A DNA stretch of 64,000 bases from Octopus vulgaris (Eukaryota). Location: contig OX597814.1 of NCBI GenBank assembly GCA_951406725.2, positions 37,448,001 to 37,512,000 of the forward strand, written 5' to 3'. Shown piece after piece: positions 50,948-58,155 of this stretch (position 1 is the stretch's first letter; each line of letters starts with the position of its first letter). The position numbers were made by a program, and so were the translations under genes. The notes under the pieces are model-generated. The model saw only the letters and a list, made by a program, of their open reading frames with translations. It ran no database searches and was not told where the DNA came from.

Positions 50948-51449
50948 CTATATATATATATATATATTTATATATATACACACACACATACAATTATACT
51001 TTAATCTGACGGTACTTTCTTCTACTGGGAGGCATAATTACCGTACTGCATTATCTAACAATTTTTTACTTTGAAAACTTTTTCACAGTTCTCTATTTGT
51101 TAACGGCGGCAAAGCGTTCAGAGAAGTATAATGACACTGATGCAGCAACAGTCAAGATTTGGTATAAGTGAATCTAGCCTAACAGAAAGAATCAAATTTA
51201 CGTTAATAAACGTAATTTGGAAAGTTCAAAACCTCTGTCCGAGATGACCTACATCTGGATTGTACAGTTATTTAATGTTCATCCTACAGGTAAGATGAAA
51301 AATAATAATAATAATAATAGTAATAATAATAATAATAATAATAATATATATATATATATATATATATATATATATATATATATATATATATATATATATA
51401 TATATATATATATATATATATTCATTATTATTTTTAATTATATAGAAGG

Positions 51450-51500
51450 AGCTTCTACAGGACTAGAACTGTTTCATTCAAAAGAAATCATCAGGAAGCT
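51450..51500 (-). ncRNA. Type I hammerhead ribozyme, copy A
   Basis: agcttc-CTGATGA-tttcttttgaat-GAAA-cag ttctagtc ctg-TA-gaagct. Confidence 0.8.
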
Positions 51501-52770
51501 AGTTGACAAGAGTTGTTTTGGCATTTATACATTTAGGCAGGTTTAAAGGGGTGGTGATGGGGGACTTTTTGGGGGTAGGCATGGCGCAAAACTATCATTC
51601 CTTAGGGGAGTGGTCAAAGGAATCGGTGGTAAAGTGGATAAAAGAATAAATAAAAGAATAAATAGAAAAATAGAGTTTTAGGTAAATAAGGAGACTCTCA
51701 CTTATACATATACATATATATACACATACACATACACCCGCATATTCATATATATATATATATATATATATATATATATAAATATACACACACATACATA
51801 CACATATGCACACACGTGCCCATATGCACACACATATACACATATGTGTACATATACATACATACATATACACACATATATGCATACATAGACATATACA
51901 TATATACACATACACATACGTACACATACATACACCCATATACACATGTACATATGTACCCATATACATGTATCTACGTACACGCCCATACCCATACTCA
52001 TACATACACTTATATAGGTCTACACACATATATATATAAGTATATAAATAAGAGGGGATATACACCCCCATACACACGCGCTCACATATCCATATATATG
52101 TATATATATATATATATATATATATATATATATATATATATATATATATATACATACACATATATATATATACATATATACATATACACACACACCCATA
52201 TACACATATATATACATACATACACATACAAACCCATACATATATATATATATATATATATATATACATATGTATATACATATATATACACATATACATA
52301 CACATACATATATGTATACACACTCGCACATATATATGCACATACGCACACATACACATGCATATACATGCACACACATAAACACACATATTTAGTCCCT
52401 TATTTTTATTTTATTATTACTTTTGTTTATATCTTTATTTTTATCTTGACTTCGGTCAGCCATCCCGGCTGTCATCCCAAGGGATGGTCTATAGAGTCCA
52501 TTTATCTTTCTACTCACTGATACGAACGCAAACGCTCACTCACGCCCACACACTCATACACACACACACCCGCACGTGTTATATTCATACATACATGCAT
52601 CTACATACATTCACGTATATACACATACGTACACGTACCTACAGATTCATATCTACACGCATACACATACATACCTCAATACACCCACAGACGACTAGTC
52701 CATACATATACACTAATAAATATATATACACATATACATATACACACACATACACATACATACACATACA

Positions 52771-52960
52771 TCATCATCATCATCATCATTTAGCGTCCGT
52801 TTTCCATGCTAGCATGGGTTGGACGGTTCAACTGGGGTCTGGGGAGCCCGAAGGCTGCACCAGGCCAGTCAGATCTGGCAGTGTTTCTACAGCTGGATGC
52901 CCTTCCTAACGCCAACCACTCCGAGAGTGTAGTGGGTGATTTTATGTGCCACCGACACAG
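52771..52960 (-). mobile_element. 3' end of a SINE with (ATG)n tail (RTE-type tail, Meta-domain-like segment)
   Basis: (CAT)n tagcgtccgttttccatgctagcatgggttggacg...ggatgcccttcctaacgccaacc. The family assignment is from recollection. Confidence 0.65.
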
Positions 52961-55176
52961 GTGCCAGACGAGGCTGGCGAACGGCCACGCTCGGATGGTG
53001 TTTTTATGTGCCACCGACACAGGTGCCAGACGAGGCTGGCAGACGGCCACGCTCGGATGGTGTTTTTATGTGCCACCGACACAGGTGCCAGATGAGGCTG
53101 GCGGACGGCCACGATCGGATGGTGTTTGTTACGTCCCCAAAGCACGGAGGCCAGTCTATGCGGTACTGGCTACGGCCACGTTCGGATGATTTTCTTGTGT
53201 GCCACCGGCACTGGTACCACAAAGATACAAATTCCATTGATGTTCATCTATTTTGATTTGTTTTGATTTGATTTGATTTGATTTTCACTTGCCTCAACAG
53301 GTCTTCACAAGTGTCACAAGAAGGAAGGTATGCACAGGTGGACTGACTACGTCCCAGGTAGGGGCCACGGGTTATGGCCTGACTAGTCTTGCCGGGTCTT
53401 CGGATGGTGTTTTTATGTGCCACCGACACAGGTGCCAGATGAGGCTGGCGAACGGCCACGATCGGATGGTGTTTGTTGCGTGCCCACAGCACGGAGGCCA
53501 GTCGATGCGGTACTGGCTACGGCCACGTTCGGATGATTTTCTTGTGTGCCACCGGCACTGGTACCACAAGATACAAATTCCATTGATGTTCATCTATTTT
53601 GATTTGATTTGATTTGATTTTCACTTGCCTCAACAGGTCTTCACAAGTGTCACAAGAAGGAAGGTATGCACAGGTGGACTGACTACGTCCCAAGTAGGGG
53701 CCATGGGTTATGGCCTGACTAGTCTTGCCGGGTCTTCGGTTGGTGTTTTTATGTGCCACCGACACAGGTGCCAGATGAGGCTGGCGGACGGCCACGATCG
53801 GATGGTGTTTGTTATGTGCCCACATCACCGAGGCCAGTCGATGCGGTACTGGCTACGGCCACGTTCGGATGGTTTTCTTGTGTGCCACCGGTACTGGTAC
53901 CACAAAGATACAAATTCCATTGATGTTCATCTATTTTGATTTGGTTTGATTTGATTTGATTTGATTTTGATTTTGATTTTCACTTGCCTCAACAGGTCTT
54001 CACAAGTGTCATAAGTAGGAAGGTATGCACAGGTGGACTGACTACGTCGCCGGGTCTTCGGATGGTGTTTTTATGTGCCACCGACACAGGTGCCAGATGA
54101 GGCTGGCGAACGGCCACGATCGGATGGTTTTCTTGTGTGCCACCGGTACTGGAACCACAAAGATACAAATTCCATTGATGTTCATCTATTTTGATTTGGT
54201 TTGATTTTCACTTGCCTCAACAGGTCTTCACAAGTTTGGTTTGATTTTCACTTGCCTCAACAGGTCTTCACAAGTGTCACACACTTGCCTCAACACGTCT
54301 CCACAAGTGTCACACACTTGCCTCTGCCTCAACAGGTCTTCACAAAGTGTCACACACTTGCCTCTGCCTCAACAGGTCTTCACAAGTGTCACACACTTGC
54401 CTCAACAGGTCTTCACAAGTGTCATAAGAGGGAAGGTATGCACAGGTGGACTGACTACGTCGCCGGGTCTTCGGATGGTGTTTTTATGTGCCACCGACAC
54501 AGGTGCCAGATGAGGCTGGCGAACGGCCACGATCAGATGGTGTTTGTTGTGCCCACAGCACGGAGGCCAGTCGATGCGGTACTGGCTACGGCCACGTTCG
54601 GATGGTTTTCTTGTGTGCCACCGGTACTGGAACCACAAAGATACAAATTCCATTGATGTTCATCTATTTTGATTTGGTTTGATTTGATTTTTGATTTTCA
54701 CTTGCCTCAACAGGTCTTCACAAGGGTCACACACTTGCCTCAACAGGTCTCCACAAGTGTCACACACTTGCCCTTGCCTCAACAGGTCTTCACAAGTGTC
54801 ACACACTTGCCTCAACAGGTCTTCACAAGTGTCATAAGAGGGAAGGTATGCACAGGTGGACTGACTACGTCGCCGGGTCTTCGGATGGTGTCTTTATGTG
54901 CCACCGACACAGGTGCCAGATGAGGCTGGCGAACGGCCACGATCGGATGGTGTTTGTTGTGCCCACAGCACGGAGGCCAGTCGATGCGGTACTGGCTACA
55001 GCCACGTTTGGGTGGTTTTCTTGTGTGCCACCGGCACTGGTACCACAAAGAATACAATTCCACTGATGTTCATCTATTTTGATTTGTTTTGATTTGATTT
55101 GATTTTCACTTGCCTCAACAGGTCTTCATAAGTGTCACAAGAAGGAAGGTATGCACAGGAGGACTGACTACGTCCC
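52941..55176. repeat. Hierarchical GC-richer tandem array (units of ~230-410 bp built from 62-bp, 33/39-bp and GATTT subrepeats)
   Basis: The 62-bp unit occurs x3 at 52941/53003/53065. The marker ttttcacttgcctcaacagg recurs at ~53282, 53618, 53978, 54206, 54245, 54696 and 55103. Confidence 0.92.
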
Positions 55177-57551: not shown

Positions 57552-57888
57552 CCTTCTATATAATAAATTATTTTACTCTGCTATGTATTGAGTACCCTAT
57601 TTACTGTGGTTAACCCCGACTCAACCCGGGACCTACATATATATATATATATATATATATATATATATATAAATATATATATATATATATATATATATAT
57701 AAATAAATATATATATATATATATATATATATATAGATAAATAAATATATATATATATATATATATATATATATATATATATATATATATATATATATAT
57801 ATGTAGGTCCCGGGTTGATTCGGGGTTAACCACAGTAAGTAAGGTACACAATACATAGCAGAGTAAAATTAATTTATTATATAGAAGG

Positions 57889-57939
57889 AGCTTCTACAGG
57901 ACTAGTACTGTTTCATTCAAGAGGAATCTTCAGGAAGCT
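57889..57939 (-). ncRNA. Type I hammerhead ribozyme, copy C
   Basis: agcttc-CTGAAGA-ttcctcttgaat-GAAA-cag tactagtc ctg-TA-gaagct. Confidence 0.8.
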
Positions 57940-58037
57940 AGTTGACAAGAGTTGATTTGGCATTTATACATTTAGGCAGGTTTAAAGGGGTGGTGGTGGG
58001 GAACTTTTTGGGGGTAGGCATGGCGCAAAACTATCAG

Positions 58038-58088
58038 AGCTTCCTGAAGATTCCTCTTGAATGAAACAGTACTAGTCCTGTAGAAGCT
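58038..58088 (+). ncRNA. Type I hammerhead ribozyme, copy D
   Basis: Same sequence as copy C, on the opposite strand. Confidence 0.8.
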
Positions 58089-58155
58089 CCTTCTATATAA
58101 TAAATAAATATATATATATATATATATATATATATATATATGCACATATATATAT

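Follow-up and report, generated by a model that had tools for sequence, protein, structure and literature searches.

Four hammerhead motifs in an octopus (TA)n locus belong to the pseudo-LTRs of an autonomous Penelope-like element, probably of the Hydra clade

A window of 64,000 nucleotides from the genome of Octopus vulgaris (assembly GCA_951406725.2, contig OX597814.1, positions 37,448,001 to 37,512,000) contains four hammerhead ribozyme motifs in alternating orientation among (TA)n tracts, which raises the question of what type of element these ribozymes serve. A preliminary description proposed that they define a non-coding, non-autonomous fold-back family with a largely microsatellite-like body that is mobilised in trans by a Penelope reverse transcriptase (RT) and GIY-YIG endonuclease. 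The analysis described here assigns the motifs instead to the pseudo-long terminal repeats (pseudo-LTRs) of a protein-coding, autonomous Penelope-like element (PLE). The window very probably contains two 5′-truncated, head-to-head insertions, designated A and B, of an autonomous PLE of the Hydra clade within (TA)n, for which the element's own RT/GIY-YIG protein likely nicked both strands and primed at two sites on the RNA.

A generic type I hammerhead descriptor returned exactly four matches in the window, the same four that had been described, and dinucleotide shuffles of the window (n = 200) gave a mean of 0.01 matches and a maximum of one. Each motif possesses the core and three helices of a type I hammerhead, with a helix I of 6–7 bp, CUGA(U/A)GA, GAAA, a cag/ctg helix III and a GUA triplet, all in agreement with the preliminary description, whereas the helix III loop of 8 nt proved palindromic only in part (CUAG or ACUAGU). 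The stem of helix II consists of 3 bp, with a single U on either side. As the four motifs are copies of one repeat, they are not independent observations. A scan of the window with Rfam did not recover them: no hammerhead family was among the 150 matches listed at E≤1, and these matches were dismissed as microRNA and small nucleolar RNA noise driven by microsatellites, in which the 2.8 Gb host genome is rich. Self-comparison of the window revealed a long head-to-head pair (51344-52505 versus 56501-57700, 91%) and a short pair (57868-57939 versus 58038-58109) with (TA)n between the two; as noted originally, the hammerhead units have no open reading frame (ORF) and adjoin (TA)n. Signed positions below are relative to the predicted hammerhead cut, +1 being the first base 3′ of the cut.

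The genome was searched for the source of these units. The 347-bp unique unit of the window produced 1,930 first-look candidates, and a 29-nt hammerhead pattern produced 7,778 exact matches compared to none for a control. When ~9 kb of upstream sequence was included, 4 of the 20 closest relatives of the window unit continued into an ORF for an RT/GIY-YIG protein. Among 39 loci selected for RT sequence, 33 read through the ORF, a stop codon and a microsatellite-like 3′ untranslated region (3′UTR) into a hammerhead of the window type; the other six have no matched stop or no matched downstream motif, and include locus L062 in which the hammerhead bears a small deletion. The 3′UTR of the ORF-linked copies spans 2,405–3,849 nt (median 3,240), and 48–68% of it consists of alternating purine-pyrimidine runs compared to 1% of the ORF. 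The 5′ pseudo-LTR leads into an ATG at +139 in 16 of the 39 loci, and a naturally intact ORF of 713 aa with YRDD and a GIY-YIG-type motif is present in two, L062 and L085. The full-length element thus is ordered as pseudo-LTR, hammerhead, tail of ~70 nt, ATG (139 nt past the cut), 713-aa ORF, (TG/TA)-rich 3′UTR of 2.4–3.8 kb and second pseudo-LTR. Both the single ORF with RT and GIY-YIG endonuclease and the hammerhead-bearing pseudo-LTRs in direct or inverted arrangement are as in endonuclease-bearing (EN+) PLEs. Database support for the protein was slight, with a weak Pfam match of an RT fragment to RVT_1 (E 0.0096), neither an RT nor a GIY-YIG match in Pfam for the whole 713-aa protein, and no match in a PDB search. 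A homologue search returned 1,117 relatives of ~700 aa which are nearly all unnamed and therefore provide no clade label.

Between +27 and -2401 the left arm of insertion A is collinear, at 87–88% identity, with L051, an ORF-linked copy whose stop codon is located at -2514. Thus, the window units are cut-short 3′ ends of the autonomous element, and the four hammerheads are pseudo-LTR ribozymes of that element. Attachment to a full PLE ORF was the observation that the preliminary description had named as contrary to its proposal, and it is what most of the RT-selected loci and some of the close relatives display. The Penelope-type hammerheads, the microsatellite-like body and the RT/GIY-YIG mover survive from that proposal; the non-coding, non-autonomous status does not, as the body is the 3′UTR of the autonomous element. 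An element that has a microsatellite body, encodes no protein of its own and depends on a Penelope protein acting in trans would account for the lack of an ORF in the window copies, for the large numerical excess of hammerhead matches over ORF candidates (300 and 532), and for four long arms that end shortly past the stop codon (+60 to +132, counted from the stop). However, the microsatellite body follows the ORF in the 33 loci above, the excess is mostly due to tiny twin units, and the 5′ ends of the four long arms differ from each other while other copies stop at scattered markers, as is expected for truncation. No amplified deletion family with a microsatellite-like body was found, nor was a shared 5′ end for a non-autonomous long form detected among the RT-selected loci and close relatives, and this explanation is considered improbable. 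Nevertheless, arms that retain a promoter but not the ORF may be transcribed and some trans-mobilisation may occur.

The element protein possesses DKT at residue 116 rather than DKG, a linker of the form CxCx5C (residues 567-575) rather than CX2-5CxxC, and an endonuclease without CCHH in which a single Cys and no CxxC separates the halves of the GIY-YIG motif. The DKT, the CxCx5C linker and the absence of CCHH are the defining features of the Hydra clade in the account of Craig et al. (2021; PMC8557442, 10.1101/2021.04.23.441226), and the protein resembles by eye the Hydra alignment that is presented there. By these motif tests the window family belongs to the Hydra clade. Other properties that the family shares with the clade as described in that account are a single ORF for RT and C-terminal GIY-YIG, pseudo-LTRs that contain a hammerhead, insertion into (TA)n, 5′-truncated copies in inverted arrangement, a tail on one end, and the 3-bp helix II flanked by single U's that is listed for many Hydra hammerheads; (TA)n adjoins nearly all of 119 terminal ends listed for the window family. 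The assignment derives from motifs and by-eye comparison and not from a tree, and the typical, although not defining, Hydra length of <3 kb does not apply to an element whose 3′UTR alone is 2405-3849 nt. All 27 Hydra families listed by Craig et al. are 1.1–3.0 kb, whereas the window family is ~5.5 kb because of this 3′UTR. The family also differs in its tail of ~70 nt instead of 30–40 nt and in its 8-nt helix III loop. Its hammerhead differs in sequence from that of the octopus member in the list, Hydra-1_Obim, and therefore it is another family.

Several ORF-bearing copies display further peculiarities. Near codon 492 of the ORF (L051-L089), 25 of 39 copies lack one base of a run of C, which breaks the frame, but the run is of full length in all four copies in which it is interrupted, and short-read contigs of four runs contain its longer form. 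The short run is likely a homopolymer error of the assembly, or may be a real slip or a subfamily trait. A C-rich tract after the stop codon (L051:5142-5200), which is G-rich in the complementary DNA (cDNA), lies just upstream of the point where several long arms end and is a possible RT barrier. Locus L097 (G000:C1:68812500-68822400) carries two ORF-bearing copies as a direct tandem with an adjoining tiny twin unit. At L036:3170-5160 an arm of the window family abuts, where the unique part of the pseudo-LTR begins, the ORF of another Hydra-like family (40% identity), which possesses its own short 3′UTR and an apparent CCGA-core hammerhead; the junction probably arose when copying switched templates from one family to the other. 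A further Hydra-like element, the third, contains asparagine-rich inserts (L034:3600-6985) and is situated within internal (TA)n of a window-family 3′UTR, which thereby supplies new targets.

The 3′ ends of 137 copies, a set that is partly selected for the long end, fell principally at two positions next to (TA)n: 69 lie at +95/96 and another 50 within +18-27, with 16 extending into the ORF and two elsewhere. In pair sets without selection for end type, 20 of 22 head-to-head pairs at the RT-selected loci combined one long and one short end (one was short/short and one was unclear), as did all 12 tiny twin pairs. Insertions A and B each have one end of either type. A tail between +23 and +96 on one end is as in EN+ PLEs, although it is ~70 nt and not 30–40 nt. 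By analogy with the anole Poseidon element discussed below, we infer two priming sites, at ~+23 and +96, with one used per insertion end and both strands cut and extended. Fold-back or chimeric reads might generate inverted pairs and arrays artificially in a long-read assembly, and this assembly has signs of homopolymer error as well as patchy errors near the centres of the arrays described below. However, the two arms end at different fixed positions within unique flanks. Moreover, contigs from four short-read runs, which cover the element but whose RNA status is a guess and which permit no reading of ends or expression, independently contain (TA)n joints at both end positions and the inverted junction at the start of helix I, the same three edges. 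Assembly artefact therefore is scarcely credible as the origin of the pairs and arrays.

The opposite edges were assessed in 81 arms, which were found at the 64 matches listed in the first 17.5 Mb of contig C1 and at one further pair. Of these arms, 59 stop ≤45 nt upstream of the cut, two of which belong to a variant subfamily and extend further; 27 stop at 44-45 nt, and only five between 46 and 75 nt. The hard edge at 44-45 nt coincides with the first base of helix I. TATAAA is located exactly 29 nt upstream of the edge in 49 of 56 continuous copies, and a T-to-A step spans the edge in 55 of the 56. An extra G precedes the edge at 10 of 13 non-inverted junctions whose parent has T at this position (p ~1e-4; four rows of the variant subfamily were dropped), and the right arm of insertion B similarly opens with an extra G followed by the first base of helix I (58037/8). 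A TATA box at such a distance, a pyrimidine-purine start and a G added opposite the cap are established signs of a capped RNA polymerase II start. These footprints lead us to infer that transcription starts from a TATA promoter and yields a capped element RNA whose first base is also the first base of helix I. In the variant subfamily (L213, L224, L227, L228) the sequence from TATAAA to helix I is changed and the 29-nt spacing is kept. Certain observations temper this interpretation. The AGCT palindrome at the edge favours inverted junctions there, and hence only non-inverted junctions test the cap reading; 21 inverted junctions with inserts contained G in 10 cases, T in seven and A in four. 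Genome-wide, 5′ edges were in excess at the cut site, with 64 at +1 compared to 19 at 0 and 23 at -1. As approximately half of these edges are explained by helix I microhomology and small indels also intervene, the count was rejected as evidence for cleavage.

The ribozyme is well preserved. Helix and core positions are 99% invariant across 132–137 copies, with common variants confined to N7, loop II and loop III, and subfamily-level changes affect none of 38 helix and core positions compared to 28 of 220 flank positions (p 0.009; the 28 include two alignment-edge columns). The core and helices are thus more conserved than the flanks. On the other side, covariation within the family was absent (0 of 13 pairs), which is attributed to the youth of the family, and monomer folds were no more stable than those of shuffled sequences (z -0.7 to -0.9). 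In three of the four window copies the monomer is predicted to enclose the cut site within a downstream hairpin, with a helix I probability of 0.004–0.08, whereas the helix III strand is predicted to form a 16-bp self-duplex of -12.8 to -15.2 kcal/mol compared to -1.4 as a hairpin. The modelling predicts that the hammerhead is mostly misfolded as a monomer and cuts only sometimes, which fits the reported dimer or helper-dependent behaviour of PLE hammerheads (PMC4209133; PMC11167929).

Traces of template jumping emerged from a search with a pattern that spans the border of the pseudo-LTR and the ORF. Among the 100 matches listed of 105, 14 loci have head-to-tail repeats of a 5′ segment. The repeat restarts at the presumed RNA start in eight loci, at the cut site within one base in three (L096, L131, L143; p ~1e-4 on a uniform null) and upstream in three. 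At L143 a short A run is present at the mini-repeat junction. Three of the 14 loci, which alone include the TATA box within the unit, are arrays of the promoter-to-ORF-start segment (units -82..+194, -132..+201 and -89..+183). Their junctions number 14, 24 and 31 and do not vary within an array; each array contains a single head-to-head flip and terminates on (TA)n at +96 and +22/23. The units are 99–100% identical to the equivalent segment of the parent PLE, the microsatellite body is absent, and a search for the junctions of two of the arrays found none elsewhere in the genome. These one-off arrays of 271–333 bp units are the true non-coding derivatives in this genome. As tandem hammerhead units without an ORF, they resemble the metazoan non-LTR retrozymes described by Cervera and de la Peña (2020; PMC7229834) and Li et al. 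(2026; 10.64898/2026.07.22.740005), in contrast to the window units which are head-to-head pairs derived from a protein-coding parent, with no head-to-tail hammerhead units of 150–450 bp in the window. The arrays are explained most simply if the RT of the element copied a small circular RNA in rolling-circle fashion, as was modelled for PLEs in PMC4209133 and for retrozymes in 10.64898/2026.07.22.740005, although DNA-level expansion may have produced them. Being 99–100% parental, two-armed and, in the two tested, confined to a single locus, the arrays resemble birth events and not families. They look like newborn retrozymes spawned by the window PLE family. If this is correct, they are direct snapshots of the origin of retrozymes from a PLE, which so far has been supported by co-occurrence and trees (10.64898/2026.07.22.740005).

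The upstream pseudo-LTR and the tail of an arm may derive from different templates, but such mosaics are rare with 3 discordant among 89 arms. The left arm of insertion B is one example: its hammerhead and tail are from one subfamily and the upstream 95 nt carries two variants that otherwise occur, among the 89 arms, only in the right arm of insertion A, which places the switch between -46 and -34. The pattern fits a cDNA that ran off the 5′ end of the RNA and folded back onto the neighbouring copy, and a comparable trace would be left by gene conversion or by an error of polishing. As a test for jumps inside the hammerhead, mosaics were uninformative with the exception of this arm. Their rarity, and the predicted burial of the cut site, are also in keeping with a different account of the same element in which the hammerhead has no activity in vivo, uncut read-through RNA is the substrate on which all long copies are primed, RT stalling or palindrome joining at helix I and not an RNA start produces the 5′ edge, and the arrays form by unequal exchange at the DNA level. 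PLE hammerheads have low activity in vitro (PMC4209133), eight of nine Xenopus hammerhead dimers did not cut (Li et al., 2026; 10.64898/2026.07.22.740005), and cleavage by the anole Poseidon hammerhead was dispensable in vitro, with no RNA-seq ends seen at the cut site (PMC11167929). Stalling does not account readily for a TATA box at a fixed 29 nt, including in the variant subfamily with a different spacer, or for the extra G, and the three jump loci that start at the cut site within one base hint indirectly at cleavage. Furthermore, within an array the two arms have the same junction and terminate on (TA)n at the two presumed priming positions, which speaks against unequal exchange. Overall, an inactive hammerhead is an unlikely explanation, albeit one with appreciable weight.

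In the mechanism favoured for the two window insertions, the RT/GIY-YIG protein would nick (TA)n on both strands and RT would prime at +23 and +96 inside the element RNA, one site per insertion end. Copying begun near the 5′ end of the RNA would run off the cap after ~70 or 140 nt, and two such short cDNAs usually would be joined by microhomology to produce tiny twin-hammerhead units such as insertion B. Long arms as in insertion A would arise either by priming on uncut RNA, within its 3′ pseudo-LTR, or by a jump to the RNA's 3′ end, potentially guided by homology through the 45-nt 5′ part of the hammerhead; the rarity of mosaics fits either route. Hammerhead cleavage would be occasional. A more ambitious reading, offered tentatively and less likely than not to be correct, is that the family reveals the rebuilding of pseudo-LTRs by a route akin to the strong-stop transfer of LTR elements. 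Capped transcripts would begin with the first base of the hammerhead; near their 5′ end RT would prime twice and run off the cap, after which it would transfer to the RNA 3′ terminus that the second hammerhead leaves, with the 45-nt 5′ part of the ribozyme acting as a terminal 'R' repeat. Failed jumps would yield the thousands of tiny twin units, jumps onto broken RNA would yield mini-tandems, and repeated copying of promoter-containing circles would yield the newborn retrozyme arrays.

Inverted insertion of the head-to-head, fold-back kind is established for PLEs (Craig et al., 2021), and the palindromes at inverted junctions were interpreted earlier as self-priming on antisense RNA (PMC3846280), which is an alternative to the joining of two cDNAs. 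The Poseidon element of Anolis carolinensis (PAc) resembles the window family in that both strands of an AT-rich target are cut and extended, two internal RT start sites bound the tail, and the hammerhead is inactive without help (Frangieh et al., 2024; PMC11167929). In contrast to PAc, the sites in the window family are in the 5′UTR rather than the ORF, are used one per insertion end, and coincide with TA-like sequence that is able to pair with the target; moreover, a few window-family copies begin at the cut site, the position that was devoid of ends in PAc. In Drosophila virilis, Penelope transcription depends on the pseudo-LTR that lies upstream in a partial tandem (Schostak et al., 2008; PMC2377424), whereas in the window family the TATA box is 29 nt upstream of the presumed start.

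The features of the window and the three arrays are collected in Table 1. The right arm of insertion A has an internal deletion of ~560 nt. The insert at 52771-55175 has a (CAT)n end and internal repeats of 62, 336 and 410 bp, and resembles a rearranged 3′ end of a short or long interspersed nuclear element. Elsewhere in the window, a 5′-truncated, frameshifted PLE of another type (30860-33255, minus strand) with a CX4CxxC linker and a CxxC inside GIY-YIG lies between TA-rich tracts. It was considered as a partner of the hammerhead family and rejected, as it has no significant similarity to the family ORF (best E 2.9). Degraded fragments of non-LTR retrotransposons are located at 35557-37464 (minus strand) and ~58600-59450 (plus strand).

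Table 1. Features of insertions A and B in the window, and tandem hammerhead arrays elsewhere in the genome
Feature	Position	Strand	Basis
(TA)n target tract, left end of insertion A	51344..51421	.	sequence, self-comparison
Insertion A left arm: the element's 3′-terminal 2.4 kb with short end (~+27) and microsatellite-like 3′UTR; halts ~110 nt before ORF stop; split by unrelated insert	51427..56310	-	L051 match
Type I hammerhead 1; predicted cut after 51456	51450..51500	-	descriptor
TATAAA, putative promoter, 29 nt upstream of helix I first base	51524..51529	-	
Unrelated GC-rich insert, internally repetitive, splitting insertion A left arm	52771..55175	.	
Insertion A right arm: 3′UTR pieces -1757..-1545 and -982..+96; long end (+96)	56291..57640	+	
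TATAAA, 29 nt upstream of 57502 (putative RNA start)	57473..57478	+	
Type I hammerhead 2, lacking 1 nt of loop II; predicted cut after 57545	57502..57551	+	
Tail of ~70 nt between end positions +23 and +96	57568..57640	+	bimodal ends, 137 copies; short-read contig loose ends
(TA)n tract common to insertions A and B	57637..57802	.	
Insertion B left arm, long end, extends to ~-140	57799..58036	-	
Type I hammerhead 3; predicted cut after 57895	57889..57939	-	descriptor
Insertion B right arm: one extra G (58037), then helix I first base; short end	58037..58109	+	
Type I hammerhead 4 (58037/8-58088/9); predicted cut after 58082	58038..58088	+	descriptor
TA-rich target tract, right end of insertion B	58110..58155	.	
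Array, 277 bp units (L090)	G000:C2:64628312-64632212		
Array, 333 bp units (L091)	C5:37481421-37489267		
Array, 271 bp units (L093/L094)	C8:91475104-91483394		

The non-coding family that was claimed for this locus is absent, and a new family of the Hydra clade by itself is modest news. No published report of the family or of a PLE start site at a hammerhead was found in a search without most subscription papers and Repbase; the accessible text of an octopus repeat-annotation paper (PMC13282606) lists recently active Penelope families and mentions neither hammerheads nor Hydra. The microsatellite-like 3′UTR that doubles the length of the element, the 70-nt tail, and footprints that bear on pseudo-LTR regeneration appear to be new. 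The 3′UTR carries fresh (TA)n targets for later insertions; by a rough estimate the family adds only 1–2 Mb to the genome and thus does not account for its microsatellite load. The value of the family is that it bears on two problems, namely the role of PLE hammerheads, which is a stated open question (Craig et al., 2021, section 15), and the regeneration of pseudo-LTRs, which was left without an obvious mechanism by Schostak et al. (2008; PMC2377424). As a young, high-copy family it provides base-level predictions for the RNA start, the two priming sites and their use of one per end, the cut site, and three sizes of circle.

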